Origin: a virus
Taxonomy: Duplodnaviria; Heunggongvirae; Uroviricota; Caudoviricetes
Reading direction: 5' to 3' (one strand)
Length of the DNA stretch: 45,525 nucleotides
IMG/VR virus record: IMGVR_UViG_2531839662_000040
Location: 1 to 45,525 of that record
Every line of letters begins with the position of its first letter. Positions within the stretch are counted from its first letter, which is position 1. The translations under genes were made by a program, and so were the position numbers. A model generated the notes under the pieces. That model ran no database searches, had not been told where the DNA came from, and saw only the letters and a list, made by a program, of their open reading frames with translations. Below, piece after piece: positions 9,807 through 30,077 of this stretch.

Positions 9807-9810
9807 GGTC

Positions 9811-10639: not shown

Positions 10640-10659
10640 TTTATCACCCCGCCGCCGCG

Positions 10660-10686
10660 GGGTGCTGAACTCCCCCAGCAGTACCC
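10660..10686 (+). promoter_or_regulatory. conserved late-operon motif, copy 1 (GGGTGCTGAACTCCCCCAGCAGTACCC)
   Basis: one of three copies sharing the 9-nt core GTGCTGAAC (copies 1-2 share 23 of 27 nt); upstream of the lysis cassette; TTATC element about 20 nt upstream. Confidence 0.4.
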
Positions 10687-10822
10687 ACCACACCAGACCG
10701 TTTACCCTGTCCACTCAGACCACAAGGCACCTTAAGGGATAGCGCCCGGCAAAAGTCATTCTGTGCCTTTGACCGGGTGTTATTTACGGGCCGTCAGTGG
10801 CTCAGATTTACAGGAGAAACTC

Positions 10823-11215
10823 ATGTCTGAACCCTTATCAGGCGGCGGAGCTGTGGCAGTCACCATCGGTGGTGCCAGTGTGTTTGGTCTTCTCACCAAT
10901 ACCGATTTCGGGGTCGTGGTGGGCGCGTTTGCCGGGGCGCTTTTTGTTGTCACGCAGCAGAAAGAAATCCCGGTCTGGCGAATGGCCATCCACCTGCTCG
11001 TCGCGTTTGTGGTTGGCGTTCTGGGGGCTGGCGTGGCTGCGTCACTGATGCAGTGGCTGACCCACTACAACGACAAGCCGCTAGATGCATTGTGTGCGGT
11101 CGGTGTCTCGGCGTTATCCATCAAGATACTGACCTTTCTTTATCAACAGGAAATTTCATCGCTGTTCGGCCTGTTTTCCAGACTGCGCGGCGGAGGGGGT
11201 GGAAATGGAAAGTAG
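10823..11215 (+). CDS. holin-like membrane protein
   Basis: ATG at 10823 after CAGGAGAAAC; several hydrophobic helices; first gene of lysis cassette. Confidence 0.4.
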   Translation: MSEPLSGGGAVAVTIGGASVFGLLTNTDFGVVVGAFAGALFVVTQQKEIPVWRMAIHLLVAFVVGVLGAGVAASLMQWLTHYNDKPLDALCAVGVSALSIKILTFLYQQEISSLFGLFSRLRGGGGGNGK

Positions 11216-11501
11216 CCTTGCCGGTATCGTGAACGTCTGGCTGTGTCTCGCCATTGTATTGGGGTTGTTTGTGTATCGCCGCCACGGTGCGGCGCATAAA
11301 CCGATGATTACCTGGCTGGCGTACTGGCTGATGCTCGGATACATCATCATCCCGTTCCGCTGGCTGTCCGGTACATACACGCACTCCAGCTGGCTGGTTG
11401 TGGCGCTGAATCTGGTTTTCTGTGCGCTTATCGTGTGGGCGCACGGGAATTTGTCAAAAATCCTTTCGTTACTGAGGCATCCACATGAAATCAAAAGATG
11501 A
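11199..11501 (+). CDS. small membrane protein (holin or antiholin candidate)
   Basis: 100 aa with about three hydrophobic segments; overlaps endolysin start. Confidence 0.4.
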   Translation: MEMESSLAGIVNVWLCLAIVLGLFVYRRHGAAHKPMITWLAYWLMLGYIIIPFRWLSGTYTHSSWLVVALNLVFCALIVWAHGNLSKILSLLRHPHEIKR

Positions 11502-12030
11502 CATTTTTGATGAAGTCCTGGGCAAAGAAGGCGGTTACGTCAATCACCCTGACGATAAGGGCGGTCCGACCAAATGGGGCATTACGGAAAAAGTCGCCCG
11601 CGCCCACGGATATCGTGGCGATATGCGCGATTTAACCCGCGAACAGGCGCTGGACATCCTTGAAGCTGATTACTGGTATGGCCCGCGATTTGACCAGATC
11701 GCCGCATTATCCCCTGATATTGCCGCAGAGCTGTGTGATACCGGTGTGAATATGGGGCCAACCGTGGCGTCCAGAATGCTTCAGCGCTGGCTGAATGTGT
11801 TCAATCTGCGCGGCAGGATGTACCCGGATATGGACGCAGACGGACGCATCGGGCCTCGTACCATCAGTGCATTGCGCGCCTTCCTGAATTATCGCGGTCA
11901 GGACGGCGAACGGGTGATGCTGAAGGCCCTGAACTGCACGCAGGGTGAGCGCTATCTGGAACTGGCAGAGAAACGCGAGGCTAACGAATCGTTTGTTTAT
12001 GGCTGGCTGGAGGGGCGCGTGGCGGTATGA
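11485..12030 (+). CDS. endolysin, GH108 lysozyme with C-terminal peptidoglycan-binding domain
   Basis: N-terminal EGGYVNHPDDKGGPTKWGIT is the GH108 signature; 181 aa. Confidence 0.8.
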   Translation: MKSKDDIFDEVLGKEGGYVNHPDDKGGPTKWGITEKVARAHGYRGDMRDLTREQALDILEADYWYGPRFDQIAALSPDIAAELCDTGVNMGPTVASRMLQRWLNVFNLRGRMYPDMDADGRIGPRTISALRAFLNYRGQDGERVMLKALNCTQGERYLELAEKREANESFVYGWLEGRVAV

Positions 12031-12209
12031 CGCGTCAGCACTGGACACACAGAACGCCACGTAAAGCTGCGCGCTGTGTTCTGGCCCTGTTTCTGATGAT
12101 GTTGCTTCCGGTGGGATGCACAGACATTAACAGAGCGGGCCAGCTGTTTGACGCGGCGGCGCAGGTCTGCCGGATTATTGACGGCATCCGGCAGTGTTCA
12201 CAGAACTGA
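12027..12209 (+). CDS. small lipoprotein (possible outer-membrane spanin-like lysis component)
   Basis: signal peptide with lipobox LLPVGC; ATGA overlap with endolysin stop; mature part lacks the Pro-richness of typical Rz1. Confidence 0.35.
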   Translation: MTRQHWTHRTPRKAARCVLALFLMMLLPVGCTDINRAGQLFDAAAQVCRIIDGIRQCSQN

Positions 12210-12229
12210 TTTTTTGAAGGTCTGACACA

Positions 12230-12436
12230 GTGAGCATTATCAGATTTACAGAATGCGCAGGCTCAGGGAGCGCCAGCGCTGTCATGGTAGTCGCTGAACG
12301 CATCACCCATTTTTACCGTCAGTGCGGTGCATATGGTGGCACGGTCATTGAACTGGATACCGGGAAAAACGTGTTTGTTCTTGAAAATCCCGACGAAGTT
12401 AAATGCCTGATTGAACAGGCTCAGAAGGACACTTAA
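12230..12436 (+). CDS. hypothetical protein
   Basis: GTG-start 68 aa ORF. Confidence 0.25.
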   Translation: MSIIRFTECAGSGSASAVMVVAERITHFYRQCGAYGGTVIELDTGKNVFVLENPDEVKCLIEQAQKDT

Positions 12437-12936
12437 TGGCGTGGTCACAGGATATCAGGGACAAAGTCCGTAACGGGTACATCTTTGACCAGCTTCCGCT
12501 GGATATCGTCGCCATGAAGTACGCCGTGCCGCACGACACCGCGCGGCGCTGGAAAACGCAGGCAATGAAGAACGGCGACGACTGGGACAAGCTGCGGGCC
12601 GCGCACGCGCTCGCCGGTGACGGGCTGGAAAGTGTCGCCCGCACCGTGCTTATCAGTCTGGTGGTGAAGTGTCAGACGACGCTTGAACGGCTGAACCAGA
12701 ACCCGGACATCCCGCCGCAGGAGTCCGTCGAACTGCTGGCGAGTCTGTCTGACAGTCTCAGTAAGGCGGTGGCCAGCAGTAAAAAAATCCTGCCGGAAAC
12801 CGACCGGCTCGCCACGGCACTGGAAGTGGTGCAGCGGCTCGGCGCGTTCATCAAGGAGCGTCACCCGGCACAGTATGCCCCGTTTCTTGAGGTGCTCGAA
12901 GGCTTCGCTAAAGAGCTTGAGGATAATTTCAGTTAA
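12436..12936 (+). CDS. small terminase-like protein (Mu gp27, DUF1804-like)
   Basis: 166 aa immediately upstream of large terminase, as in Mu. Confidence 0.45.
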   Translation: MAWSQDIRDKVRNGYIFDQLPLDIVAMKYAVPHDTARRWKTQAMKNGDDWDKLRAAHALAGDGLESVARTVLISLVVKCQTTLERLNQNPDIPPQESVELLASLSDSLSKAVASSKKILPETDRLATALEVVQRLGAFIKERHPAQYAPFLEVLEGFAKELEDNFS

Positions 12937-12970
12937 CCACAGCGGCCCGGTTTTCCGGGCCGTCTGATAT

Positions 12971-14629
12971 TTGTATACCAGGTGTGACGTGGCAAAACGT
13001 AAACTTTCCATTAAAGAGTTTCAGAGAAGCCTGCAGGAGTACATCGCCAACCTCCGCCAGACCATCGAGGCTGAATGTCTGGGGTTCGATGTTAACCCGC
13101 AGGCCACACAGGCCCGCCGGGCGGCAGTCTGCGACCCGGTGACGGGCTACGATTATTTTGTCGAAAACTATTTCCCGCACTACGTCCGCAACCCGGCAAA
13201 AAGTGAGCTGCATAAATACCTGTTCAGCCGTCTGCCACAGGTAGTGGCAAGCCCGGACCCGGAGAACGACGCCATCGCCGCGCCTCGTGGTGAGGCAAAA
13301 TCCACGCTGGTGACTCAGCTGTTTACCCTGTGGACCATTATCCGGGGTATTAAGCATTATCCGGTCATCATTATGGACAGTATCGACCAGGCTTATCCGA
13401 TGCTGGAAGCCATCAAGGCTGAACTGGAATTTAACCCCCGTTTAAAAAACGATTTCCCGGAAGTGTGCGGGCAGGGTCGCGTCTGGCGTATGGGGACCAT
13501 CGTCACGGCCAACAATATCAAGGTGACCGTTGCCGGTAGTGGTAAAAAGCTGCGTGGTCTGCGCCACGGTCCGTACCGTCCTGACCTGGTTATCCTTGAC
13601 GACATCGAGAACGACGAGATGGTGCGTAATCCGGAGCAGCGCGACAAGCTGCATGACTGGCTCACCAAAACCGTGATGCCGCTGGGCGAGGCTGGCGGTA
13701 AAACCGATATTATTTATATCGGAACCATCCTGCATTACGACTCCGTGCTGTCGCGCACGCTGAATAACCCGATGTGGAAAACAGCCCGCTTTAAGGCCGT
13801 TATTCAGTGGCCTGCCAATATGAAGCTGTGGGACGAGTGGGAAGAACTCATCCGCAACAAACAGCCGGAAGCAGCGGAGGCACTTTACCGACAGAACGAA
13901 GCCGACATGCTCGCCGGGTCGGTGGTGTCATGGGCGGCGCGTCCCCTGCTGGCACTGATGAAAATCCGTGTTCGTGACGGTCATGACACCTTTGATTCTG
14001 AATACCAGAACGACCCGGTCAGCGGTGAAGATGCGCTGTTTGCGGGCTGCATTAAGTTCTGGGTTAACCGTCTTGATGAATGGGTGTTCTACGGCGCTGT
14101 TGACCCCAGCCTCGGGAAGAAGAATAAAAACCGCGACCCGTCGGCCATTCTCGTGGGGGGCTTTAACCGCTTTACCGGCATTCTGGATGTGGTTGAAGCC
14201 GATATCCGCCGACGTCTGCCGAATAAACTTATCGAAGACGTGATCAAGTATCAGCGTGAATATCACTGCCTGTGCTGGTCGTTTGAGTCCGTCCAGTTTC
14301 AGGAGTTTCTGCGTACCGTGCTGGTTGAGCGTTCGGCGGCGCTGGGTGTGCCGGTTCCGGCGCTGCCGGTCATCCCGCTGGAGGATAAGGCGCTGCGTAT
14401 CGAATCCCTTCAGCCGCATATGGCCAACGGCCTGATCCGCATCAGTCACACACATCAGACACTGATTGACCAGCTGCGCCACTACCCCAAAGCCGACCAC
14501 GATGATGGCCCGGACTGTCTGCACATGCTGTGGACGCTGGCGGTATCGCGCAGCGCAAAATTTCAGATACACACCCCACGCAGCACCGGGCGTGACCGTG
14601 GCGGGCGTTTTGGTTCAGGAGGATGGTAA
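12971..14629 (+). CDS. terminase large subunit (Mu gp28-like)
   Basis: 552 aa; position and size match; true start could be slightly downstream. Confidence 0.75.
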   Translation: MYTRCDVAKRKLSIKEFQRSLQEYIANLRQTIEAECLGFDVNPQATQARRAAVCDPVTGYDYFVENYFPHYVRNPAKSELHKYLFSRLPQVVASPDPENDAIAAPRGEAKSTLVTQLFTLWTIIRGIKHYPVIIMDSIDQAYPMLEAIKAELEFNPRLKNDFPEVCGQGRVWRMGTIVTANNIKVTVAGSGKKLRGLRHGPYRPDLVILDDIENDEMVRNPEQRDKLHDWLTKTVMPLGEAGGKTDIIYIGTILHYDSVLSRTLNNPMWKTARFKAVIQWPANMKLWDEWEELIRNKQPEAAEALYRQNEADMLAGSVVSWAARPLLALMKIRVRDGHDTFDSEYQNDPVSGEDALFAGCIKFWVNRLDEWVFYGAVDPSLGKKNKNRDPSAILVGGFNRFTGILDVVEADIRRRLPNKLIEDVIKYQREYHCLCWSFESVQFQEFLRTVLVERSAALGVPVPALPVIPLEDKALRIESLQPHMANGLIRISHTHQTLIDQLRHYPKADHDDGPDCLHMLWTLAVSRSAKFQIHTPRSTGRDRGGRFGSGGW

Positions 14630-14632
14630 TTA

Positions 14633-16228
14633 ATGGCACAGCTTGTTGATATTTACGGACGCCCGCTGAAACGTGAGGCACTCAAAACCACGCAGTCGGT
14701 CAGAGTGGCGGAACGGCTGCGCATTTATCCCGACCACCCGTCCCGTGGTCTGAACATCAGAAAACTGCCACGCATTCTGGAAGCTGCCGAACGCGGCTAT
14801 CTTCCGGCGCAGGCGATGCTGTTTGCGGATATGGAAGAGCGTGATGGTCATCTGTTTGCCGAGATGGAAAAGCGCAAAAAAGCGTTGCTGACGCTGGACT
14901 GGTCGGTGGAGCCGCCCCGCAATGCCTCGAAGGCAGAAAAGGAGCTGACTGCCGCCGTGGATGAGTGGCTGCACGGCATCCCGGACATGGAGGACATCAT
15001 CCTCAACGGGATGAGCAGTGTCGGTTACGGCTTCAGCTGTCAGGAAATCAGCTGGGCGTTCGTGGATAAAACGTGGTTACCGGATGCGGTGACACTGCGA
15101 CCGCATAACTGGTTTATTACCCTGCCGGAACACAATGACGAACTCCGGCTGGATGACGGCAATCGTGGGGAAGATGGTAAAGACGGTTCCGCGCTGTGGC
15201 CGTTCGGCTGGCTGGTTCACCGTTACAACGCCCGGTCGGGGTTCCTGGGTTCATCCGGCCTGTTCCGCGTACTGGTCTGGCCGTATCTGTTCAAAAACTT
15301 TGCGCTGCGTGATATGGCAGAATTTCTGGAGATTTACGGTCTTCCGGCGCGCATTGCCTACTATGCACAGGGCACCAGTGACGAGGACCGGGACAACATT
15401 CTCGAAGCCCTGGTTAATCTGGGCCATGAAGCGGTGGCAGCCCTGCCGCAGGGTAACGAAATCGAGTTCAAGGAAGCCGCGTCCGGCGGGCCCGAGGCGT
15501 TCATGTCGATGGTGGAATGGGCGGAGCGTACCACCTCAAAAGTGATTCTGGGCAGTACGCTGACCAGCCAGGCTGACGGTAAAACCTCCACCAACGCGCT
15601 GGGTAATGTGCATAACGAGGTCCGGCACGACATTCTGGCCGCCGATGCGCGCCAGCTGTCCGGCATGTTCAGCAGCCTGATACAGATGATGGCCAGCCTC
15701 AACGGCTGGCAGGATATCCCGCCACGCCGTCTGCCGCGTCTGGTGTTTGATGTGCAGCAGGAAGCCGACATTAAGGGCGTGGCGGACGCCGTCAACGTGC
15801 TGGTCAACAATGTGGGGATGAAGGATATCCCTGTGTCGTGGGTACGCAAAAAAACCGGTATCCCCACCCCGAAAGACGGCGAAGAGGTACTGGTGCCGGT
15901 GGCACAGCATCTCCCTGTGCAGGCGGGCCTCAGCCAGCTGCGTGAGCGGCTGAATGTTGCCGCGCTCAGTCAGCAGGACAACGGGGAGGACGACCCGGCA
16001 CAGCGCGCCATCGACCGGGCAGAGCTTCCGGCAGAGGCCATCGCGCAGGGGATGAACGAACTGGTGGCCCCACTGGTGCAGGCCATACAGGAAGGCCGGG
16101 ATGCAGACGAGGCCATGAACGTACTGGCGGAAGCATGGCCGGAGCTGCCGGATGACACGCTGCGGCAGTTGCTGACGCAGGCATTTTTTGTGGCGGATAT
16201 CTGGGGGCGACTGAATGCCGACAGCTGA
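14633..16228 (+). CDS. portal protein (Mu gp29, DUF935-like)
   Basis: 531 aa directly after terminase. Confidence 0.75.
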   Translation: MAQLVDIYGRPLKREALKTTQSVRVAERLRIYPDHPSRGLNIRKLPRILEAAERGYLPAQAMLFADMEERDGHLFAEMEKRKKALLTLDWSVEPPRNASKAEKELTAAVDEWLHGIPDMEDIILNGMSSVGYGFSCQEISWAFVDKTWLPDAVTLRPHNWFITLPEHNDELRLDDGNRGEDGKDGSALWPFGWLVHRYNARSGFLGSSGLFRVLVWPYLFKNFALRDMAEFLEIYGLPARIAYYAQGTSDEDRDNILEALVNLGHEAVAALPQGNEIEFKEAASGGPEAFMSMVEWAERTTSKVILGSTLTSQADGKTSTNALGNVHNEVRHDILAADARQLSGMFSSLIQMMASLNGWQDIPPRRLPRLVFDVQQEADIKGVADAVNVLVNNVGMKDIPVSWVRKKTGIPTPKDGEEVLVPVAQHLPVQAGLSQLRERLNVAALSQQDNGEDDPAQRAIDRAELPAEAIAQGMNELVAPLVQAIQEGRDADEAMNVLAEAWPELPDDTLRQLLTQAFFVADIWGRLNADS

Positions 16229-17381
16229 CGATGTTGACCTGGGGTATGCGTACACCCTGAAACCGGAAGAAGCGATTAAGTATTTCGAAAGCAAGGGATA
16301 CGTTATCGGCTTCCGCTGGCACGATGTGAAGGACATCGCACACGCCCGGGCGTTCACGGTGGCGGGCGTGCTGAAACTGGATGTGCTGAAGGATATCCGT
16401 GATGGCCTGACGGCGGCACTGGCTGACGGCGGGACGTTCCGGGAGTTTGCTGCACAACTGGAGCCGTTACTGGAGAAAAAAGGCTGGCTGGGTAAACGGC
16501 TGATTGTGGACGAGGACACCGGCGAACTGCACGGCAGACAGCTGACGCCGCGCCGGTTGCGCACGATATTTGATACCAATATTCAGTCGTCATACAACGC
16601 CGGACGTTATCAGCAGCAGATGGCGAACGTGGCTGACCGGCCTTATTTTGAGCGCGTGGCAGTGATGGACCTTCACACACGCCCGAAACACGCCGCCCTG
16701 AACGGCTTTACCGCCCGGGCGGATGACCCGGTCTGGGAGTATTTCTACGCGCCTGACGGGTACGGATGCCGCTGCCGTATCCGGGCGCGTTCGGCGTCTG
16801 ATGTGGAGAAATATGGCCTGACGGTGCAGAGCAGCGAGGGGCGACTGGTTGAGGTTGAACAGGAATATGGCCAGCCGGGCCAGACCATCAGAACAATGGG
16901 GCTGAAGATGCCGGACGGTTCCGTGTATACCGCCGACCCGGGCTTCGGATTTAATCCCGGTCGGGTGGCATGGCAGCCGGAACTGGAAAAATACGATTAC
17001 CGCAGCGCCCGCCAGTATGTCACCGGCACCCTGACCGGGCCGGATTTTGCCCGGGGACTGGCGAACGTCAGCGAACTGGATGCGCGCCAGCGATATCCGC
17101 TGGCCATCCGTTCACCGGAACAGGTCGCCGCCACGGGGGCCGCACGGCAGACGGTAAACCTTACGGCTGACGTTATGAAGCGCCTCAGTGCAACAGACAC
17201 GCCCCCGACCGCCGCCGACTATGTGCTGATGCAGCAGACCATCGAACGGGCGGAGCATGTCACGCAGGACGGCAACGCGTGGCGGTATGCGTTACAGTCT
17301 GGCGACCGCTGGTCAGTGGCGACGGTTGAGGATGACGTGCTGACAGACTGGGTTATGCAGGACACCCCGGAGGCATCATGA
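16215..17381 (+). CDS. Mu F-like head morphogenesis protein
   Basis: 388 aa; GYGCRCR motif region typical of Mu F-like proteins; follows portal. Confidence 0.7.
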   Translation: MPTADDVDLGYAYTLKPEEAIKYFESKGYVIGFRWHDVKDIAHARAFTVAGVLKLDVLKDIRDGLTAALADGGTFREFAAQLEPLLEKKGWLGKRLIVDEDTGELHGRQLTPRRLRTIFDTNIQSSYNAGRYQQQMANVADRPYFERVAVMDLHTRPKHAALNGFTARADDPVWEYFYAPDGYGCRCRIRARSASDVEKYGLTVQSSEGRLVEVEQEYGQPGQTIRTMGLKMPDGSVYTADPGFGFNPGRVAWQPELEKYDYRSARQYVTGTLTGPDFARGLANVSELDARQRYPLAIRSPEQVAATGAARQTVNLTADVMKRLSATDTPPTAADYVLMQQTIERAEHVTQDGNAWRYALQSGDRWSVATVEDDVLTDWVMQDTPEAS

Positions 17382-17929
17382 GCGGCGGTAAACTGGATAT
17401 TAAGATTGATTTAAGCGCGTATAACACCACGCTGGGGAAACTGATTCGTTCCGTGAAGGACCGGCGCGACCTGATGACGGCACTTGCAGGCTCCATGCTG
17501 GATGCGGTTGAGACTAACTTTGAACAACAGGGTCGCCCGAAATGGATGGGCTGGAGTCCGGCTTATGCGAAGCGACGCGGCCCCGGGCAAATCCTCCAGA
17601 AGTCCGGGCGACTGGCTGCCAGTATCCGCTCTGCGGTTAACAATAACGAGGCCACGGTCGGGACAAACGTCCGTTACGCCCGTATCCACAACGAAGGCGG
17701 CGAAATCCGCCATCAGGCACGGACGCAGAACCTGTATTTTAAACAGTACAAAAACGGCAGCGTCAGCACCCGCTTTGTGAAAAAGCGCAACAGTAATTTT
17801 GTGCAGAGCGCAACGGTCGGAGCGTATACGGTCAACATGCCCGCGCGTCCCTTCCTTCAGCTTGTGCAGGACGACATCGACGAGCTGGAGAACACTGCAA
17901 ACCGCTATTTTGCGCGTGTGATTGACTGA
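17378..17929 (+). CDS. Mu G-like virion morphogenesis protein
   Basis: 183 aa, position after F-like gene. Confidence 0.55.
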   Translation: MSGGKLDIKIDLSAYNTTLGKLIRSVKDRRDLMTALAGSMLDAVETNFEQQGRPKWMGWSPAYAKRRGPGQILQKSGRLAASIRSAVNNNEATVGTNVRYARIHNEGGEIRHQARTQNLYFKQYKNGSVSTRFVKKRNSNFVQSATVGAYTVNMPARPFLQLVQDDIDELENTANRYFARVID

Positions 17930-18020
17930 ATGGTCACAAACGCGCTGTAATCGTCTGTGACAACATAAACGCCTCACGGATGAGGCATTACAGCACCGCA
18001 CCCCATAAATGCCGTCAGAA

Positions 18021-18045
18021 TCGTTTTTAAAAGGGTTTTAAAAAC
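18021..18045 (+). terminator. AT-rich palindromic hairpin CGTTTTTAAAA-GGG-TTTTAAAAACG
   Basis: perfect 11-bp arms followed by T-rich tract, between G-like and I-like genes; second hairpin GCCTCA-CGGA-TGAGGC just upstream. Confidence 0.3.
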
Positions 18046-18082
18046 GGTTTTATTTCCCATTTTATCCTTTCCCGTTATGGCT

Positions 18083-18109
18083 GGGTGCTGAACACCCTCA
18101 ACAGTACCC
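18083..18109 (+). promoter_or_regulatory. conserved late-operon motif, copy 2 (GGGTGCTGAACACCCTCAACAGTACCC)
   Basis: 23 of 27 nt shared with copy 1; overlaps the GTG start of the I-like gene. Confidence 0.4.
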
Positions 18110-19254
18110 CGTTTTCTCCTTCCGTCATCATGCCGCGTATGAAGATGAACATTGCGGCGTTAAGCCTCGAAATCACCAAAGCAACTCACAGCGAAATCCA
18201 GCTGTTTCCGGCAGGCGAGTTCAGTGCGGTGGATGGTCGCCCACATACCGATGAAGTCGAAAGCGGTAAATGGGTGCTGACTGCCGAACTGGCCGCGCAG
18301 CTTGTCGCACAGGTGGCAGCCCGTACCACGCCTTTTGTCATTGATTACGAACATCAGACGCTGCGCGCCGTAAACAACGGCAAGCCCGCCCCGGCGGCGG
18401 GCTGGTTCAGCCAGGTGGAATGGCGTGAAGGTGTGGGCCTGTATGCCACCGGTGTGGAGTGGACGGAGAACGCGGCGGCCATGATTGCCGCCGGTGAGTA
18501 CAAATTTATTTCCCCTGTTTTTGCCTACAACAAGCGCGGCGAAGTGCTGGAGCTGTTACATGCTGCGCTGACCAATACCCCGGCGCTGGACGGTATGGAC
18601 GCGGTCATGCTGGCTGCGGCCAGTCGTCTGGCGAGTCTGTCAACTGAAACGGAGACCACAACGGTGGATGAAGAACTGTTAAACGATTTGCTGTCCAGTC
18701 TGCGCTGGATGCTTAACCTCCCGGTGACCTCAACGGCGGAAGATATCAAAAGCGAGCTGCAAAAGGTCGTTGACATGATTTCGAACGGTCAGGGAACGGC
18801 GGCGGCATCCGTCAGCCTGCTGGCCCTGCTGAATCAGAAAGACGAGCAAATCGCCAGCCTGTCAGCAAATGCCTATGACCCGACGAAGCATATCCCTCTG
18901 ACGGCATATGAAGAACTTCAGGGACGTTATGCCGTACTGGCGCAACAGTCCGGTGAAGCCGAAGCCGGGGCACTGATTCAGGCGGCGCTGTCTGACGGGC
19001 GACTGCTTCCGACGCTGGAAGACTGGGCGAAAGATTACGCTCGTCGCGATATTAACGGTTTTAAAACCTGGCTGGATAAAACCACCCCGCTTGCCGCACT
19101 CAGCAGCACCCAGACCGGCGGCAAACCACCCAAAACGCCGTCACCGGCCCCGGCGCAGATTAAAACCGGCGATGACGTCGATGTCGATATCGCCATTTGT
19201 TCAATGATGGGCGTTGATCCAGAGGATGTCGCCCGTTACGCAGGAGACAAGTAA
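18085..19254 (+). CDS. Mu I-like head protease/scaffold protein
   Basis: 389 aa; position between G-like and major head gene; true start may be an internal Met (MPRMKMNIAAL). Confidence 0.65.
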   Translation: MLNTLNSTPFSPSVIMPRMKMNIAALSLEITKATHSEIQLFPAGEFSAVDGRPHTDEVESGKWVLTAELAAQLVAQVAARTTPFVIDYEHQTLRAVNNGKPAPAAGWFSQVEWREGVGLYATGVEWTENAAAMIAAGEYKFISPVFAYNKRGEVLELLHAALTNTPALDGMDAVMLAAASRLASLSTETETTTVDEELLNDLLSSLRWMLNLPVTSTAEDIKSELQKVVDMISNGQGTAAASVSLLALLNQKDEQIASLSANAYDPTKHIPLTAYEELQGRYAVLAQQSGEAEAGALIQAALSDGRLLPTLEDWAKDYARRDINGFKTWLDKTTPLAALSSTQTGGKPPKTPSPAPAQIKTGDDVDVDIAICSMMGVDPEDVARYAGDK

Positions 19255-19650: not shown

Positions 19651-19660
19651 GGAGCAAAAC

Positions 19661-20569: not shown

Positions 20570-20572
20570 TGC

Positions 20573-20914: not shown

Positions 20915-20917
20915 CCC

Positions 20918-21349: not shown

Positions 21350-21402
21350 TTACTGACATTGAACGGGCGCTGGTTGAGCGTCTGCGCTGTGGTCTGGGGC
21401 AT

Positions 21403-21984: not shown

Positions 21985-22207
21985 GGCGGCTCACGGGATG
22001 AAGTTCCCGATGGAGGATAACGCCCGGAAATACATCACCACGGAAGCGGTGACCGTTGAGAATACCGCTTATTACCGGCGCGCCGTTCAGGACGGTGACC
22101 TGATTCTGGTGAAGGATGAACCTGAAGCCACCGAGGTGGCTGAACAGGACGCCGTGCAGGTAAAAGCGAAGGTGAAGAAAGAGAAACAGGTGGGCTCCGA
22201 TGAGTGA
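21965..22207 (+). CDS. Mu gp38-like small protein (DUF2635-like)
   Basis: 80 aa immediately upstream of tail sheath. Confidence 0.45.
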   Translation: MNKMKVKAAHGMKFPMEDNARKYITTEAVTVENTAYYRRAVQDGDLILVKDEPEATEVAEQDAVQVKAKVKKEKQVGSDE

Positions 22208-23621: not shown

Positions 23622-23633
23622 GGAGCGCGGTAA

Positions 23634-24008
23634 ATGTCCATTAAAGAATATGTCGGCTCGATTGTGCTGGAGGTGGACAGCCAGGAAATCGAGATCACCG
23701 ACTTCGATGTTCAGATCAACACCGGACGAAAGCTGGTCAAGACCATGAACAAAACCGGCAGGGCAAAAGGCTTTGCCCGTGGCATTGCCACTTACGATAT
23801 TTCAGTTTCGGCGGTTATCCCTGATACCAACGAGCCGGACTGGGAAAATCTGGAAGGTGTGAAAATCTCAATTTATCCGCTCAGCAACAGCGGTAAGCGC
23901 ACCTCCTATCTGGACTGCTTCACTGTTGAAGTGGGTGAGAAATACACCGTCGACAGTGAAGCGAAAATTGATATCAAAATGGCTGCACTCAGGAAGGTGA
24001 CAGGATGA
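23634..24008 (+). CDS. tail tube protein (Mu M-like)
   Basis: 124 aa directly after sheath. Confidence 0.7.
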   Translation: MSIKEYVGSIVLEVDSQEIEITDFDVQINTGRKLVKTMNKTGRAKGFARGIATYDISVSAVIPDTNEPDWENLEGVKISIYPLSNSGKRTSYLDCFTVEVGEKYTVDSEAKIDIKMAALRKVTG

Positions 24009-24388
24009 CTTTGATTAATACACAGACCGGCGAACTGTCTGATGGCGTGGTATTTAACGGCACCGTTCATAAAAACTTTGAGCTGCGTCTGCCGGTCATG
24101 CGTGATAACGGGCAGGCACTGGAAGAAACCGAAGAACGCTTTCAGACGGTGGACGGCTTCGCGGCAGATTATTACTACCGTTGTGCAGTGATGGCGGCAA
24201 CGCTGGTCCGTCTTGGGGATATCCCGCAGGAAGAACTGACGGCGGATCTGTTGCACGACAACATGACGCCGGACGATTTTAATATTCTGCTGGCATCACG
24301 CAACGTCCTGAAGGTAAAGCGGAACGGCGGGAATCCCGGCTCGCCGGACTCCGGCTCGCAGTCCTCATCCTCGGGCGCTACGGAATAA
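24005..24388 (+). CDS. tail assembly chaperone (Mu gp41-like)
   Basis: 127 aa between tube and tape measure; Ser/Gly-rich C-terminus; overlapping -1 frame open from 24283 to 24561. Confidence 0.5.
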   Translation: MTLINTQTGELSDGVVFNGTVHKNFELRLPVMRDNGQALEETEERFQTVDGFAADYYYRCAVMAATLVRLGDIPQEELTADLLHDNMTPDDFNILLASRNVLKVKRNGGNPGSPDSGSQSSSSGATE

Positions 24389-24550
24389 CCGAAGAGCAAA
24401 TCATGACCATGAGCCGTCCCGAGCTGGACGGCTGGCTTGCCGCCGTTGACAGGCTGAACGGCGGCGGCTCAGGAAGGAAGGACACCTCACAGACCACCCG
24501 CCAGTCATTTAAATCCCTCAGAAAGAAACGCAGAAAAGGTAAGCAGAAAA

Positions 24551-26830
24551 ATGGCCGGTAATTTCAAAGTTGGCATGACCCTGACTGCGAAGGACGAAGC
24601 CTCGCAGGTCCTGGAAAAGGGACAAAAACAGGTTATCAAAGCCACCGAAGGTGTAACAAAGGCAACCCGGAAAGCAGGCGCAGAGCAGAAGCGTACCGAG
24701 CAGGAAAGCATTAACAGCACGAAAAAGGCCGCAAAAGAGATACAGCGTGCCGCCCGTGCCCGGGAAACGCTCGGTATTCGTGCAGAACGCGAGATCCGGC
24801 GTGAAATTTATCTGACGGTTGCCAGTTATAACCGTCTGGCCCGCGCCGGTTTTGAATCTGCGCAGGAGCAGGAGCGCGCCATGCAGGCCACCCGGGAAAA
24901 AGCCCGGGCACTCAAGCGCGAACTGGATGGCGTTACTCAGGCTCAGATGAAGATGGCGAAAACGCCTGTTATCCCTGAACAGGGGCGTTTTGCGCGTGCA
25001 GCTGCATTTGGCAGGAATGCCGTGACAACAGGCGCTGGTATCGCAGCAGGTGCGGCTATTATGGCGCAGCCGGTCAAAAAGCAGATGAGCTACGAACGCC
25101 AGCTGGCAATGATGGCCAATACCGCTTTCAGTGATGGCGGCCTGGAGGGGCGCAGAGCTGGTCTTGAGCAGATGAAAAGCAGCATCCGTAACGCAGTGAC
25201 CTATGGTGGCGGTACGAAAGAGGATGCAGCCGAAACACTGGATGCCTTGCTGAAAGACGGCATTTCATTTGAAACAGCCAGTAAGTGGCTGCCCGAACTG
25301 ATGAAATACGCCACGGCTTCAGGCGCATCTGCAACAGACCTGGCTAAGGTGATGATTAAGGGCAAAAAGACCTTTGGATTCAGGGATGAAGATATTTCCA
25401 CCGTTCTGAATATGGCGATTGCAGCGGGCAAAGAAGGCAGCTTTGAACTGAACGACATGGCCCGCTGGTTATCCCAGCAAATGGGCGCTGCGTCAGCTGC
25501 GGGGATGAAAGGCAAGGATGATTTCGTCAAGATTCTGGCGCTGAATGAAGCTGCCGCCATCACGGCGGGAAGCAGTGATGAAGCCGGAAATAACGTGGTT
25601 AACCTGCTGGCAAAACTGACCAGTAAGGATATTGAAACAGCGGCTGCGGGGATAAATTACAACGGTAAGGGAATCGACTTTTCCGGTACGCTGACTGAAG
25701 CACGTGAGAATGGACTTAATCCGATAGACGCGCTGTCCAGCCTGATAGACAAAATCGTTGCCAGCGATAAACGCTATCAGGAGCTGCAAAAGAAACTGGC
25801 CTCCGCCCGGGATAAAGGTGAGCAGACGGCTGTTTATGATTCGATGGCAACACTCCTTGAAGGCTTTGGTGTCGGAAAGCTGATTGCAGACCGTCAGGCG
25901 TTGATGGCGTTGTTAGCCTACCGTAACAACCCTGAATACCGGAAAAAGGTTGAAGACGCGATTAATCAGCAGCGCACCCTGCCGGAAGGTCAGCGCGCGG
26001 GTGATGTGGATTTTAAATTCATATCAGATACGAATGATTTTAAAACCGAACAGGCTAAAAACACGCTTGAATTTTCACAAATGGACAGCGTGAAAAAGCT
26101 GGCGGATGCATCCGGTACTGTGGCCGATGCCATAAGCTGGGCGGGTGAAAAATTTCCGGGACTGACCACAGCAGTCGTGGGTGCCACGACCGCCATTGAA
26201 GCGATGACCGCAGCAGCCCTGACATGGGCCGGGATCAAAATCCTGACCGGGGGTAAACCCGGTGGCAAGGCTGGCGAGGTTGTCGGTGATGTCATTGAAA
26301 ACACGGTCAAAAAAGGCAAAGGATTTAAATTCCCCGGCATTGCCGGTGGCCTGCTTTCTTTCGGTAGCACCGTTACGGCACTGGCCACTGCAACCAGCCC
26401 GGAAGAAGACGCCGCCGTCGAAGGAAGCGAGGAGCGCTGGAAAAATATACGGGCTAAATATCCTCAGTGGCTGATTGATGCTGCCCGTGAAAAATATCAG
26501 CCGTGGTGGCAGTTTGGCGAAGGTTACTCAACAGAAAACGAGAAATGGATCCAGCAGTATCTTGACGAACTGAAAAAAACCGGGGTTATCGCCGGTGATT
26601 CTCTGCCAACACCAGAACAAGTCCGACAGCAAGCCGGAATGGCAGCGTCTGAAACGGCATCAAAGCAACCCGGACGCATCACCCAGCCGGAATACCTCAC
26701 GCACTGGGGACCACCTGCCAGCCCCATTAATTTCACCACACAACTGGTGCTCGATGGTCAGGTCGTGGCGGAAGCGGTGAATAAATACAACCTTCAGGAC
26801 GGCAACAGAGGCACGGGAGGAACTTACTGA
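24551..26830 (+). CDS. tail tape measure protein (Mu-type)
   Basis: 759 aa, Ala/Gly-rich with predicted coiled regions. Confidence 0.8.
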   Translation: MAGNFKVGMTLTAKDEASQVLEKGQKQVIKATEGVTKATRKAGAEQKRTEQESINSTKKAAKEIQRAARARETLGIRAEREIRREIYLTVASYNRLARAGFESAQEQERAMQATREKARALKRELDGVTQAQMKMAKTPVIPEQGRFARAAAFGRNAVTTGAGIAAGAAIMAQPVKKQMSYERQLAMMANTAFSDGGLEGRRAGLEQMKSSIRNAVTYGGGTKEDAAETLDALLKDGISFETASKWLPELMKYATASGASATDLAKVMIKGKKTFGFRDEDISTVLNMAIAAGKEGSFELNDMARWLSQQMGAASAAGMKGKDDFVKILALNEAAAITAGSSDEAGNNVVNLLAKLTSKDIETAAAGINYNGKGIDFSGTLTEARENGLNPIDALSSLIDKIVASDKRYQELQKKLASARDKGEQTAVYDSMATLLEGFGVGKLIADRQALMALLAYRNNPEYRKKVEDAINQQRTLPEGQRAGDVDFKFISDTNDFKTEQAKNTLEFSQMDSVKKLADASGTVADAISWAGEKFPGLTTAVVGATTAIEAMTAAALTWAGIKILTGGKPGGKAGEVVGDVIENTVKKGKGFKFPGIAGGLLSFGSTVTALATATSPEEDAAVEGSEERWKNIRAKYPQWLIDAAREKYQPWWQFGEGYSTENEKWIQQYLDELKKTGVIAGDSLPTPEQVRQQAGMAASETASKQPGRITQPEYLTHWGPPASPINFTTQLVLDGQVVAEAVNKYNLQDGNRGTGGTY

Positions 26831-28179
26831 TGGGCTGGGCTGAAAACCTGCAAAACGCCTCCTTTCGTGGCGTGCAGTTTGATGTACTGAACACGGATGA
26901 ACAAATCAGCCGCGACCATGCGGTCTATGAATACCCGTTTGTTGACGGGGCGGATTTGCACGACCTCGGGCGCAAGGCGCGACCGTTCCGCATGACGGCG
27001 TTCCTGTGGGGGGAGTATTACGAATATAAACTCGAAAAGCTGATCGCCGCCCTGGACGAAGGCGGCGATGGTGAGCTGATTCACCCGGTTTATGGCTCCG
27101 TTCCGTCGGTGATTGTGACCGGCTACAGCATTCGCCATGACGCAGAAAGCCCGGACAGCTGCACCATCGACATGAGCTTTCTGGAGAACCGCACCGGCAG
27201 CGCGTTGTTCAGCACCCCGTTACCGGAGCTGTTTGCACAGCAGTTATTTGAAGAACTGGATAAGTTACTGGCACAGTTAAGCGAATTATTTGACGCTGTT
27301 ACGGCCCCTTTAAAGACCATTAACAGCGTGATTAAAAAAATCCAGACAGTGCGCGCCACACTGGTAAATACCCTGCTGACGTTCAAAAGCGATTTTCTCT
27401 CATCCATCGACAATATGATGTCGCTGGCCAGCGAACCCGGGAAATTTATTGGCGGGCTGGCAGAGGTGCTGGAAATCCACACGTCAGATGTCGGGCACGC
27501 GGTGCCGGTGCTGGAGCGTACTGATTCCGCCACCACGACCGGACTGACCGGGGAAGACAGCGTCGCCAGTTCTGCGACAGTGATGACCTGCTGGAATGAG
27601 GTGACGGCAGATATGGATGAGCTGGTCGCGCTGCCGGTCGCACTGGTCAGCGGTGATAAAACGCCGTCTGTGGCACTTCCGCCGGATGCGTCCGTGGAAG
27701 ACGTGCAGGACGTGAAAGCGGCTTATGCGGTTCTGGCAGCCTCAGAGCTGGCCAGCGTGGCGACGGCGATACTGTCCGATGAGGCCCAGTCAGAACAGCT
27801 TATACCGGCAGATATCGGGCGACTGGTCGGGGATGTGCGCACCCGCTTACAGGCAGCCATCACGCTGTTCCGTGAACGCTATGAAAGCGAACGCGAACGG
27901 ATAACCGAAACCGCATCACCACTGGGGCTGATGTACCCGGAAATCATTCAGAGCATGAAGAACGTGGCGGCATCCGTGCAGGATGTCGGCCTGCTGGTTC
28001 TGTCACGCCGCCCACCGCTGACGCAGAAACAGGTGCAGGCGGACAGCTGTCTGCTGTTGCTGGCGTGGCAGTGGTACGGTGATTACAGCCGTGCGGCAGA
28101 GCTGCAACGTCTGAACCCGCAGCTGCGTGACCCGAACAACATAACCGCCGGGATGGTGATTAATGCCTACGCAAAATAA
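26830..28179 (+). CDS. Mu N-like DNA circularisation/tail protein
   Basis: 449 aa following tape measure, as in Mu. Confidence 0.7.
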   Translation: MGWAENLQNASFRGVQFDVLNTDEQISRDHAVYEYPFVDGADLHDLGRKARPFRMTAFLWGEYYEYKLEKLIAALDEGGDGELIHPVYGSVPSVIVTGYSIRHDAESPDSCTIDMSFLENRTGSALFSTPLPELFAQQLFEELDKLLAQLSELFDAVTAPLKTINSVIKKIQTVRATLVNTLLTFKSDFLSSIDNMMSLASEPGKFIGGLAEVLEIHTSDVGHAVPVLERTDSATTTGLTGEDSVASSATVMTCWNEVTADMDELVALPVALVSGDKTPSVALPPDASVEDVQDVKAAYAVLAASELASVATAILSDEAQSEQLIPADIGRLVGDVRTRLQAAITLFRERYESERERITETASPLGLMYPEIIQSMKNVAASVQDVGLLVLSRRPPLTQKQVQADSCLLLLAWQWYGDYSRAAELQRLNPQLRDPNNITAGMVINAYAK

Positions 28180-29374
28180 CGACGACAAAATCAGTCTGGT
28201 CATTGCCGGAAGGTCGCATTCTGACTGGAGCAGTTACCGTATTGACAGTGATTTCCTGAAAGCTGCCGACGGCTGGCAGCTTCAGTTGGGACTGCCTGAA
28301 AAGGTGTTCCCGGCGGATATCGTCCGGGGTGCGCCAGTCCGGTTGCAGGTGGGAGACGAAACGGTGCTCAGTGGTCGCGTGGACAGCGTGCGCCGCAGTG
28401 TATCCCGTCAGAGCTGCACGCTGACGCTGTCCGGGCGTGATGATGCCGCCATTCTGGTGGACTGTGCCGCGCCGGTGTTCAGCGCCAACCAGCTGACACT
28501 GGACGAGGTCATCGACAGGATAGTCAGACCGCTGGGGATACAGCGCATTCGTATTCAGGCGTCCGGTGTGTCACGTAATGACAAGGTCGTTATAGAGCCG
28601 GGGATGCGTGCGTGGGATGCACTGGCTAAAGCTGCCGCCGGTCGCGGCTTATGGCCGTGGTTTGAGCCTGACGGGACGCTGGTTGTGGGTGGCCCTGACT
28701 ACACCACCACGCCGGTGGATACGCTGATTCTGAAGCTGGACGGCACCGGGAACAACGTGATGGAGCTGGATGATACCCGGTCCATTAACGGCTGCTTCTC
28801 CGAACTTACAGTGCTGGCACAGAGCCACGCCCGCCGCGCAGACAGCAAAAAGCAGCTGGCCACAGTGCCACTGGATATCTGGAACGAGGACGGCAGCGTG
28901 CGCACATTATCCGGGCGGGACGGCGGTAATACGGACAATGGCCAGACAGGCATTCATAACATGAAAGCTGTGGCCACCGACCCCACCGTGGATTATTACC
29001 GCCCGCAGATTATCACTCAGGGTGACACCAGCAACCTGGAGCAGGTGAACTGGCGCGCCAAAAAAATGATGAGTGATGCCCGTCTGTCGGGGCTGGATAT
29101 CGTCGCACTGGTTGCAGGTCATCGCACGGCGGACGGTGTCCTGTGGCAGCCCGGCCAGCGTGTGCGGATTGTCAGCGAACCCCACGGCATCGACGCCATC
29201 TTTTTCCTGATGGGGCGTGAGTTCAGCGGAGGCCGTAACGGGAAGACAACCCGGCTCCGATTTAAGGAGGACGGCGTGTGGATACCTGACGCCTTCCCGC
29301 GCGAGAAGAAACGCCATCACCGCAGGGGCAAAAAGAAAAAAGAGGTCGCCATTGTTAAGGTCTGGGAGAAATGA
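28163..29374 (+). CDS. Mu P-like tail protein (P2 gpD-like fold)
   Basis: 403 aa; synteny N then P. Confidence 0.7.
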   Translation: MPTQNNDDKISLVIAGRSHSDWSSYRIDSDFLKAADGWQLQLGLPEKVFPADIVRGAPVRLQVGDETVLSGRVDSVRRSVSRQSCTLTLSGRDDAAILVDCAAPVFSANQLTLDEVIDRIVRPLGIQRIRIQASGVSRNDKVVIEPGMRAWDALAKAAAGRGLWPWFEPDGTLVVGGPDYTTTPVDTLILKLDGTGNNVMELDDTRSINGCFSELTVLAQSHARRADSKKQLATVPLDIWNEDGSVRTLSGRDGGNTDNGQTGIHNMKAVATDPTVDYYRPQIITQGDTSNLEQVNWRAKKMMSDARLSGLDIVALVAGHRTADGVLWQPGQRVRIVSEPHGIDAIFFLMGREFSGGRNGKTTRLRFKEDGVWIPDAFPREKKRHHRRGKKKKEVAIVKVWEK

Positions 29375-30024
29375 TGTGGGACAAAGTTAATCAGCGCGTA
29401 CAGCAGGCACTGGCCGCCGTTCGCCAGGCATTCAGGGTGGTGACCGGTACGGTGGACAGTTCGACCAAAGTACAGTTGCTTCAGCTGAACGGGCTGGCAG
29501 GCGAACAGCTGGATGGTGCGGAGTATTTCCAGCATTACGGCCTCACCACATCTCCGCCACCCGGCTCGATGGGTATTGCCGTTCCGCTGAACGGCAATAC
29601 CTCCCATACCGTCGTCGTGGCCACAGAGCACGGCGCATATCGCCTGACGGAACTGAAACCCGGCGAGGTGGCCCTGTATACCGATGAAGGCGCGAAAATC
29701 GTACTGAAACGCGGGCGGGTTGTTGAAACGGACTGTGACGTTTACCGGGTGAAATGCAAACGCTATGAGGTTGAGGCAGAGGAAAGTGCCGCATTCACGA
29801 CACCGTTACTGACGGCCAGCGATAAGCTGACGGTGGAAGGTAAAATCACCGGCAACGGTGGCATGGCCATCAGTGGGGGCAAGAAATACGCCGCCACCTT
29901 TGAAGGCAACATCAACCATGTGGGTGGTGTGATTACCTCCGTTGACGTCACCGTTAATGGCGTTAAAATCGGAACGCATAAACACGATACCCCTCACGGC
30001 ATATCTGGTCTGCCGCATAATTAA
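29371..30024 (+). CDS. baseplate spike protein (Mu gp45 / P2 gpV-like)
   Basis: 217 aa; C-terminal His-rich apex GTHKHDTPHGISGLPHN. Confidence 0.65.
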   Translation: MMWDKVNQRVQQALAAVRQAFRVVTGTVDSSTKVQLLQLNGLAGEQLDGAEYFQHYGLTTSPPPGSMGIAVPLNGNTSHTVVVATEHGAYRLTELKPGEVALYTDEGAKIVLKRGRVVETDCDVYRVKCKRYEVEAEESAAFTTPLLTASDKLTVEGKITGNGGMAISGGKKYAATFEGNINHVGGVITSVDVTVNGVKIGTHKHDTPHGISGLPHN

Positions 30025-30044
30025 GTGCTGAACCCCCTCACCTG
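30025..30044 (+). promoter_or_regulatory. conserved late-operon motif, copy 3 (GTGCTGAACCCCCTCACCTG)
   Basis: shares GTGCTGAAC core with copies at 10660 and 18083; lies between spike and gp46-like genes. Confidence 0.35.
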
Positions 30045-30077
30045 ATTCTGACCTGTCCATGCTGCCAGACTGGCGGC

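Follow-up and report, generated by a model that had tools for sequence, protein, structure and literature searches.

To our knowledge, Mor/C-type activators have been studied almost only in phage Mu. The DNA analysed here, a stretch of 45,525 nucleotides that we call the window, comes from a Mu-like prophage with one gene of this family (Table 1), and it raises the question of how the late operons of such a prophage are switched on. The original prediction was that a motif with a 9-nt core, recurring at three late-operon boundaries, marks candidate late promoters for this single activator. Promoter geometry, conservation, co-variation with the activator clade and the sole activator gene all support it. 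From sequence, we put the probability at roughly 80% that the three GTGCTGAAC boxes are late promoters and the binding boxes of the prophage's one Mor/C-family activator. Very probably, they have a Mu-type promoter architecture with a different recognition sequence.

Recurrence of the core at three operon starts

The shared core is real. There are four exact matches to GTGCTGAAC in the whole window against 0.43 expected, and at least four were seen in 0 of 100 shuffles. The plus-strand matches, at 10662, 18085 and 30025, all lie in intergenic gaps, in agreement with the gene context first given for them (lysis cassette, gene I and gp46). Copy 1 is between a 92-aa open reading frame (ORF), which follows the Mor-family gene, and the holin gene at 10823; copy 2 is directly 5' of protease gene I (ATG at 18139); and copy 3 is in the 53-nt gap from the baseplate V stop codon (30024) to the gp46 ATG (30078). 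The 27-mers containing copies 1 and 2 (10660-10686 and 18083-18109) are identical at 24 of 27 positions, not 23 as first counted. The similarity of copy 3 (30025-30044), first put at about 15 of 20, also stands: it matches copy 2 at 17/20 positions and copy 1 at 16/20. The fourth match, unmentioned in the original prediction, is on the minus strand within the N-like gene (27207-27215). It lies in a coding region, is not a full box by the matrix described below, and was set aside as chance.

Two further elements had been associated with the motif. TTATC is indeed present 20 and 23 nt before copies 1 and 2, but it is kept in close relatives only and is thus probably not part of the element; before copy 2, it belongs to G-I intergenic sequence resembling that of Mu. 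The hairpins said to precede copy 2 are part of a distinct element, TTTTTAAA..TTTAAA, which is itself conserved.

All three intergenic copies fall in a 19-nt box, yGCTGAAsCCyyTCArCyG, whose two halves form an imperfect dyad, GCTGA-N6-TCArC, around a C-rich centre. With a position matrix, three boxes and no more come up in the window, at 24.9-30.5 bits; the next best site scores 14.9, and shuffled sequences reached 20.3 at most. The matrix scan found no fourth late promoter, either mom-like or for the P2-like module (37.6-45.5 kb).

Table 1 Positions of the activator gene, the candidate late promoters and associated features in the window
Feature	Position	Strand	Remarks
Intrinsic terminator (9781-9806), then sigma70-like promoter TGTACA-16-TATAAT (9811-9838)	9781..9838	+	5' of activator gene
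Mor/C-family activator gene, 155 aa	9868..10335	+	Pfam PF08765, 28.3 bits vs cut-off 24.9
Hairpin CACCCCGC-CGCC-GCGGGGTG, GC-rich	10645..10664	+	Right arm overlaps first two bases of box 1; fold z-score -3.5
Box 1, candidate lysis-operon promoter, TGCTGAACTCCCCCAGCAG, dyad GCTGA-N6-CCAGC	10663..10681	+	Matrix 24.9 bits
-10-like hexamer TACCCT	10703..10708	+	Fixed +39 offset
Box 2, candidate head-operon promoter, putative Mu PI equivalent, TGCTGAACACCCTCAACAG	18086..18104	+	Matrix 28.1 bits
-10-like hexamer CATCAT	18126..18131	+	Predicted start 18138-18139
Protease/scaffold gene I	18139..19254	+	RefSeq start; ATG at predicted transcript start; without Shine-Dalgarno
Box 3, candidate baseplate/tail-fibre operon promoter, TGCTGAACCCCCTCACCTG	30026..30044	+	Matrix 30.5 bits
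-10-like hexamer CAGACT	30066..30071	+	Predicted start 30078
Inverted repeat, 13-bp stem, GAC loop	30055..30083	+	MFE -26.2 kcal/mol, z -5.3
gp46-family baseplate gene	30078..30428	+	ATG at predicted transcript start; without Shine-Dalgarno

Promoter geometry and the Mor/C-family activator

At each of the three sites, a -10-like hexamer (TACCCT, CATCAT and CAGACT, respectively) begins 39 nt after the G of GCTGA. Both this offset and the form (T/C)AnnnT are fixed in 47 of 48 distinct sites from the window and its relatives, as is the 31.5-nt distance from the dyad centre to the hexamer. Among relatives, the box and the -10 are conserved, while the flanks and the 20-21-nt spacer diverge. The hexamers are weak, with 3-4/6 matches to TATAAT, and a consensus scan of 9800-19000 found no full sigma70 promoter at the lysis and gene I sites; the sequence itself has AGTACC (2/6) at the -35 position of the lysis site.

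Given the offset of the hexamer, the dyad centre lies at -43.5 and the box at -52 to -34 relative to the predicted start. This is the geometry of the promoters of the late genes in Mu (Plys, PI, PP and Pmom), with an imperfect dyad and a 6-bp C-rich centre at the same place. In the Mu sequences, each of the four late promoters has its ATAA half-site beginning 28 nt 5' of the -10, and the dyad centre of Pmom is 31.5 nt before its -10, the same distance as here. The region -52 to -34 is required in Mu Plys, with the dyad at -43.5 (PMC2582627), and the Mor site at Mu Pm is a dimer-type 16-bp dyad, again at -43.5 (PMC4390567). As in Mu, the -10 is weak but recognisable (TAGACT, CAAACT and TATCCT in Mu) and there is no -35; promoters precede the lysis genes and gene I, and the activator is encoded just 5' of the lysis operon. 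Moreover, MAFFT aligns box 2 with Mu PI, and a hairpin abuts the first box, as the Mu terminator overlaps the TTAT half-site of Plys. What differs is the recognition sequence, as originally noted: the half-sites are GCTGA/TCArC here versus the Mu C consensus TTAT-N5-6-ATAA (PMC12867686). They are thus not Mu C sites and point to a different specificity within the same architecture. Other differences concern layout. The third promoter here precedes gp46, whereas that of Mu is within gene N, ahead of P; a mom promoter is absent; gene I is without the 26-nt leader that bears a ribosome-binding site in Mu; and one activator replaces the Mor-to-C cascade.

The claim of a single Mor/C-family gene also withstood scrutiny: among six-frame ORFs of the window, a profile made from family members together with Mu C and Mor matches this gene alone. 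Its PF08765 match is just above threshold. Its alignment to Mu C and Mor runs through FLGGxxFYIP, the helix-turn-helix and QxxLF; identity to Mu C is confined to a 21-aa stretch. Unlike Mu C, with which it shares only the FLGGxxFYIP stretch, it has insertions and is without the N-terminal clamp motif. At the C-terminus, QVGLFD lines up with QPDLF, the motif by which Mu C binds the clamp, and this retained QxxLF suggests a coupling to the sliding clamp, as reported for Mu C. An ORF at 9292-9768 was considered as a hidden second Mor and rejected, with no Pfam match, no similarity to the Xenorhabdus Mor paralogue and no profile match. Where a relative has two Mor-family genes, a CACTGAAC box stands about 90 nt 5' of the C-like one, at the place taken in Mu by the Mor-activated Pm. 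The window, unlike Mu at Pm, has neither a second activator nor this box; the terminator and sigma70-like promoter are found there instead.

We propose that the Mor/C-family activator, together with host sigma70 RNA polymerase, switches on the three late promoters, one each for the lysis/packaging, head and baseplate/fibre operons. If it works as Mu C and Mor do, it would bind the box at -43.5, replacing the -35 contact, and recruit or remodel the polymerase.

Conservation in relatives and co-variation with the activator

A search of related Mu-like prophages for the motif at equivalent positions located it at the same three operon starts in every relative with an orthologous activator. Salmonella, Serratia, Xenorhabdus, Aeromonas, Klebsiella and metagenomes all supply relatives with box and hexamer at the lysis cassette, gene I and gp46. 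In all relatives with activators 36-65% identical to that of the window, the two best sites are just 3' of the activator gene and 5' of gene I. Box 1 is conserved in position in L005, L006, L008, L009 and L188-L218, even where the lysis cassette has been swapped, and non-homologous hairpins occupy the place of the preceding hairpin in L008, L009 and L010. All relatives examined have box 2 5' of gene I. Across 470 kb of DNA surrounding gp46 homologues, every site that reaches 18 bits is 51 or 50 nt 5' of the gp46 ATG (39 loci). These comparative data already contradict the reading of the repeats as functionless chance matches or recombination remnants at module boundaries, which we regard as extremely improbable. 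The sites do lie at module junctions, and the lysis cassette 3' of box 1 differs between relatives, but the shuffle statistics speak against chance, and box, offset and orientation are strictly kept down to 36% activator identity, where the flanks are unalignable.

The pattern of variation also bears on whether the box acts in RNA. GCTGA and TCAGC are complementary and could form a stem with a 6-nt loop, serving as a processing, stability or anti-termination signal in late transcripts; every copy is on the transcribed strand, and hairpins are common near the sites. However, the left arm is invariant in 26/26 distinct boxes while the right arm reads TCAGC, TCAAC, TCACC or CCAGC, with no compensating change, and for lack of such variation an RNA stem was rejected as very unlikely. 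The fixed 39-nt offset of the hexamer and the change of box with activator clade argue the same way, and comparing the whole window with Rfam at gathering thresholds gave no match.

The box changes with the activator in a regular manner. GCTGAA is found in activator clades at least 44% identical to that of the window, ACTGAA in a 40-42% clade and with the Mor-like paralogue, and GACGAA in a 36-41% clade. Box types track helix-turn-helix residues (S-x-R-Q versus S-x-L-M, and SDRxxW versus SDRxxQ) in a sample of three clades and one paralogue. The ACTGAA boxes of Klebsiella phage ST405-OXA48phi1.1 number exactly three and stand at lys, I and gp46. It is unlikely, if slightly less so than an RNA stem, that the boxes are real promoter elements read by some other factor, such as a regulator of the host or another early protein of the phage. 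For several early ORFs no function is known, and the activator gene has its own sigma70-like promoter, so that timing must be controlled in some other way. Against such a factor, box type follows the Mor/C clade and its helix-turn-helix residues from Escherichia to Aeromonas, the first box is always directly 3' of the activator gene, and the boxes have the geometry of sites for Mu C and Mor (PMC2582627, PMC4390567). The 92-aa ORF between activator and box 1 is no better placed: L009 lacks a counterpart, and L008 and L010 have ORFs of different length in its place.

With the Mor/C-family activator as the reader of the boxes, they would form a second well-defined Mor/C operator family, with Mu geometry and different half-sites. 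The natural variants GCTGAA, ACTGAA and GACGAA, which match particular residues, offer a ready system for studying how Mor/C activators read DNA, and for Mu-like prophages of E. coli, Salmonella, Klebsiella and others, the late operons become annotatable from sequence alone. Among isolated phages, no activator was more than 41% identical to that of the window; a Megablast search of phage records with 9800-19000 returned a sole match, of 538 bp in two Yersinia phages, and a genome-contig search with the activator protein returned no relative. Literature searches on the motif string, and on leaderless or late promoters in Mu-like phages, found nothing relevant.

Predicted leaderless starts and the hairpin at gp46

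The lysis promoter has a predicted start at about 10715, giving a structured 108-nt leader (z -2.7) to the holin ATG at 10823, with AGGAG. The other two promoters look different. At gene I and gp46, the ATG is 6-8 nt past the hexamer in many lineages of very different sequence, and five lineages otherwise dissimilar in sequence all have the gene I hexamer 6-7 nt 5' of the ATG. A hexamer nAnnnT ending at -7/-8 is present in 39/50 distinct gp46 upstream regions, versus 8% of random positions and 18% of other ORF starts. Anti-Shine-Dalgarno pairing is weakest at gene I (+1.2 kcal/mol) among the 63 gene starts scored and third weakest at gp46 (-1.5 kcal/mol), which suggests leaderless mRNAs. From the spacing, transcription at the head and baseplate promoters would begin at the ATG or 1 nt before it, and we somewhat favour the view that the gene I and gp46 mRNAs are leaderless. 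The gp46 start codon is ATG in 80/80 viral loci; an exception is Klebsiella phage ST405-OXA48phi1.1, which has GTG at the predicted +1 and a compensating change in the left arm of the hairpin described below.

The cI mRNA made from PRM of phage λ is leaderless. The predicted transcripts resemble it in beginning at the A of AUG with no Shine-Dalgarno sequence; unlike cI, the candidates here, whose 5' ends are predicted, would be highly expressed late structural genes heading long operons. Translation without a leader, if the leaderless starts are true, would be uncommon for phage structural genes of such abundance.

The gp46 start is also covered by a hairpin, whose loop and adjoining stem bases contain the -10 hexamer and whose right arm contains the AUG. 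RNAalifold with 23 sequences gives 10 pairs, four of them with compensatory changes. This conservation shows that selection acts also on a longer RNA or on the DNA itself. Read-through RNA would fold into the hairpin and bury the AUG, so that gp46 translation would depend on the local promoter; if the starts are leaderless, the hairpin would be a built-in means of distinguishing locally started from read-through RNA. That it has such a translational function is doubtful at present. Mu mom, a late gene, likewise has an RNA hairpin that hides its start codon. In contrast to com-mom translational control (PMC6483171), no Com-like protein or binding site was identified here, and the proposed escape is a local transcription start.

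The same hairpin allows an alternative that we consider possible but distinctly less probable than leaderless starts, in which the promoters are real and the mRNAs are not leaderless. Transcripts would start elsewhere or be translated on read-through RNA, with the hairpin as the main device, a translational switch or RNase site comparable to com-mom. Leaderless translation in E. coli is generally held to be inefficient and to require AUG, and the compensatory changes in the AUG-sequestering hairpin, together with the one in the phage with GTG at the predicted +1, fit this alternative. However, the lysis promoter, which has no ATG nearby, shows exactly this box-to-hexamer spacing; the hexamer is then most simply a -10, from which RNA polymerase would have to start 6-9 nt downstream, at the ATG. 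The absence of Shine-Dalgarno sequences at I and gp46 points the same way, and A and T are kept at positions 2 and 6 of the hexamer, neither of which a hairpin loop would need.

Taking leaderless starts as the preferred reading, we offer a broader proposal only tentatively. In a clade of Mu-like myoviruses that is widespread (Enterobacterales, Aeromonas and many metagenomic relatives; not Mu), the head-protease and baseplate-wedge operons may be leaderless from Mor/C-type promoters, and an AUG-sequestering hairpin may silence the same genes on read-through transcripts. What separates 'late' from 'middle' activator specificity may be a single box base, position 2 of xCTGAA, where G or A would be read by two helix-turn-helix residues (R-Q versus L-M). 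A hairpin like that of gp46 is not significant at gene I in the window (z -0.75); distant relatives do have one at gene I.

Recurrence and anatomy of the box

The core motif GTGCTGAAC occurs four times in the window against 0.43 expected, a count that no shuffled sequence reached, so its recurrence at three late-operon boundaries, from which the original prediction started, is real. The first two copies are slightly more alike than had been stated, with 24 of 27 positions identical rather than 23. The conserved unit is a 19-nt box, yGCTGAAsCCyyTCArCyG, whose C-rich center lies within an imperfect dyad, GCTGA-N6-TCArC. Scanned with a position matrix derived from 26 distinct related boxes, its own three among them, the window yields three sites, scoring 24.9, 28.1, and 30.5 bits, all intergenic and on the + strand, upstream of the lysis operon, gene I, and gene gp46 (boxes 1, 2, and 3). 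The next-best site, within the endolysin gene, scores 14.9 bits, and shuffled sequences give a maximum of 20.3 and a mean of 9.9. The minus-strand copy of the core was rejected as a fourth box, not being a full site.

Positions 2 to 7 (GCTGAA) are invariant in 26/26 distinct boxes, and the right arm varies with no compensating change. This variation does not suit an RNA stem; an invariant left arm with a variable right arm fits what would be a protein site whose half-sites are unequal, one strong and the other weak. At all three window sites, a (T/C)AnnnT hexamer begins 39 nt past the G of GCTGA, and the distance from dyad center to -10 is 31.5 nt. As this is the spacing of Mu Pmom, the box spans -52 to -34 relative to the predicted starts. 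No -35 element turned up at either the lysis or the gene I site in a sigma70 scan of 9800-19000.

Coordinates of the predicted late-promoter elements and neighboring features (window positions unless a related locus, L-number, is named)
Feature	Sequence	Position	Strand
Activator gene		9868-10335	+
Core motif, box 1	GTGCTGAAC	10662	+
Core motif, box 2	GTGCTGAAC	18085	+
Core motif, box 3	GTGCTGAAC	30025	+
Core motif, rejected copy	GTGCTGAAC	27207	-
-10-like hexamer, lysis site	TACCCT	10703	+
-10-like hexamer, gene I site	CATCAT	18126	+
-10-like hexamer, gp46 site	CAGACT	30066	+
Start codon, gene I	ATG	18139	
Start codon, gp46	ATG	30078	
Predicted holin mRNA leader		10715-10823	
Hairpin at box 1		10645-10664	
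Hairpin at gp46		30055-30083	
Terminator and sigma70 promoter upstream of activator gene		9781-9838	
Candidate gyrase-site element	CGTTTTTAAA-N5/6-TTTAAA	18022-18046	
P2-like tail module		37635-45525	
Second tail-fiber gene		43550-44953	
Box and hexamer before C-like gene, two-Mor-gene relatives	CACTGAACCCCTTCAAC, AATACT	L195 5158-5210; also L193, L196, L199-L206	

Comparison with Mu and with related loci

In Mu (L003), each of the four annotated late promoters (hexamers TAGACT, CAAACT, TATCCT, and TAAGAT) has its ATAA half-site beginning 28 nt upstream of the -10, and the TTAT-N6-ATAA dyad of Pmom is centered 31.5 nt before the -10, at -43.5. The Mu C consensus is TTAT-N5-6-ATAA (PMC12867686), the published center of C/Mor sites is -43.5, and mutation has defined -52 to -34 as the 19-bp region needed in Mu Plys (PMC2582627, PMC4390567). 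The window boxes share the 31.5-nt spacing and the -52 to -34 placement of Mu C/Mor promoters. Box 2 and its -10 have an aligned counterpart in Mu PI, but PI is followed by a 26-nt leader that contains a ribosome-binding site.

Relatives were compared at loci around activator homologues whose identity is 83% in a Logan assembly, 65% in Salmonella, and about 54% in Serratia, Xenorhabdus, and Aeromonas; viral contigs supplied further loci around gp46 (80), gene I (79), and the activator (49). The box with an nAnnnT hexamer at +39 (or +38) is found in 47/48 distinct site sequences, the lone exception (L057) being spaced differently from the gp46 ATG; across lineages, the 20-21 nt spacer and the upstream flank of these 48 sites are unalignable. 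In every relative whose activator is 36 to 65% identical, one of the two best matrix matches falls just 3' of the activator gene and the other 7-9 kb farther on, before gene I. Across 470 kb surrounding gp46 homologues, every site scoring 18 bits or more is 51 or 50 nt upstream of the gp46 ATG, in 39 loci. The box is retained where unrelated genes replace the lysis cassette, and the complete Klebsiella phage ST405-OXA48phi1.1 (L219) has exactly three, upstream of the lysis genes, gene I, and gp46. The search of relatives at equivalent positions, suggested with the original prediction, thus recovered boxes before all three.

Spacing, conservation, and co-variation of box and activator clade uphold the reading of these sites as late promoters for the single Mor/C-family activator. 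From such sequence comparisons, we consider it probable (about 0.8) that they are Mu-type late promoters with a new operator sequence, the predicted activator box. No description of these promoters was found in the searchable literature; the architecture is already known, and the operator, its specificity variants, and a probable leaderless design are new variants. Distant gene I loci from other Mu-like clades (e.g., L153, L155, L141) carry different, clearly palindromic boxes, CGGAAnnnnTTCCG and CGAATCCATTCG, and there too the box stands at an equal distance from a -10-like hexamer close to the ATG, which suggests a design shared throughout the group.

The activator and box specificity

The activator is, as first proposed, the only Mor-family member found in the window. 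Its family is small (18 proteins among 5.8 billion), and it passes the Pfam Mor threshold by a narrow margin. It has FLGGxxFYIP in common with Mu C, and its C-terminal QVGLFD aligns with QPDLF, the C-terminal clamp-binding motif of Mu C (PMC12867686), for which a requirement for that motif and the beta clamp in activation has been tested. Box type follows activator clade: yGCTGAAC in clades at >= 44% identity, CACTGAAC in a clade at 40-42%, and TGACGAAC in a clade at 36-41%. In the alignment, the first helix of the helix-turn-helix has S-x-R-Q in most GCTGAA-type proteins, the pair being R115-Q116 in the window activator, and S-x-L/T/S-M in ACTGAA-type proteins, the Mor-like paralogue included; GACGAA-type proteins have SDRxxQ, versus SDRxxW in the others. 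This co-variation is a correlation over few clades, yet it is as would be predicted for a cognate protein-site pair.

Phages with two Mor-family genes have an additional CACTGAAC box with a -10 roughly 90 nt upstream of the C-like gene, the position of the Mu middle promoter. The CACTGAACCCCTTCAAC box there, one base different from the late box, resembles a middle promoter, with a second TACTGAAC lying across its -10. Two signals precede the window activator gene: a near-consensus sigma70 promoter, TGTACA-16-TATAAT, and, farther upstream, an intrinsic terminator, AGCCCCTGC-CAT-GCAGGGGCT with a T7 tail.

Start codons, hairpins, and neighboring elements

The lysis promoter, with a predicted start at ~10715, has a 108-nt structured leader and a normal AGGAG; the predicted holin leader contains a long stem (-42.5 kcal/mol, z -2.7). 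The ATGs of gene I and gp46 stand 6-8 nt past the -10 hexamer in the window and likewise in Salmonella, Serratia, Xenorhabdus, Aeromonas, and Klebsiella. A hexamer nAnnnT ending at -7 or -8 is present in 39/50 distinct gp46 upstream regions, against 8% of random positions and 18% of other ORF starts, and 9 of the 11 remaining regions have it one base farther off. Among 63 gene starts, gene I has the weakest anti-Shine-Dalgarno pairing and gp46 the third weakest. All 80 viral loci begin gp46 with ATG; in Klebsiella phage ST405-OXA48phi1.1 (29780-29805), the start codon is GTG at the predicted +1, which counts against leaderless translation. On balance, with starts predicted at 18138/9 and 30078, we somewhat favor leaderless gene I and gp46 mRNAs.

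At gp46, a 13-bp stem (-26.2 kcal/mol, z -5.3) contains the AUG in its right arm and the -10 hexamer within its GAC loop and adjoining stem bases. Among 23 diverse sequences that keep this stem, 4/10 pairs show compensatory changes, and in the Klebsiella phage, which also keeps it, the change from ATG to GTG is paired with CCAT to CCAC in the left arm. Distant gene I promoters share this design; no such hairpin was found at gene I of the window. The gp46 AUG would be hidden in read-through RNA and exposed in locally started RNA. That the hairpin separates the two is a tentative idea, to which we give fairly low confidence.

A GC-rich hairpin lies next to the left arm of box 1 or runs into it, as in L008, L009, and L010, the stem sequences being unrelated; in Xenorhabdus, its right arm is the box itself, and in Mu, a predicted terminator (10383-10406) overlaps the TTAT half-site. 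Ahead of the gene I promoter, the G-I intergenic region keeps CGTTTTTAAA-N5/6-TTTAAA in five aligned relatives, Mu included (about 17912-17935), Salmonella (L006) excepted. The Mu copy lies about 35-55 nt 3' of the annotated gyrase cut site, and the element may be part of a strong gyrase site.

The window is an Escherichia coli Mu-like prophage with a near-identical copy in strain UMNF18 and ~97% identity to one in EPEC E2348/69. The sole differences from the RefSeq UMNF18 record are two 1-nt homopolymer indels (about 5680 and about 7505) and an SNP at 18081, 5 nt upstream of box 2. Gene order is Mu-like: transposase A and B, early genes, GemA, and the activator; two holins and endolysin, terminase, portal, F, G, and protease I; then major head, tail, baseplate V, gp46, gp47, and fibers. 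Beyond these, a second, P2-like tail module (sheath, tube, assembly protein, and U/X/D-like genes) extends toward potB and contains no late-promoter boxes. A second tail-fiber gene, after the Mu-like fiber genes, is a partial duplicate of 33687-35303.
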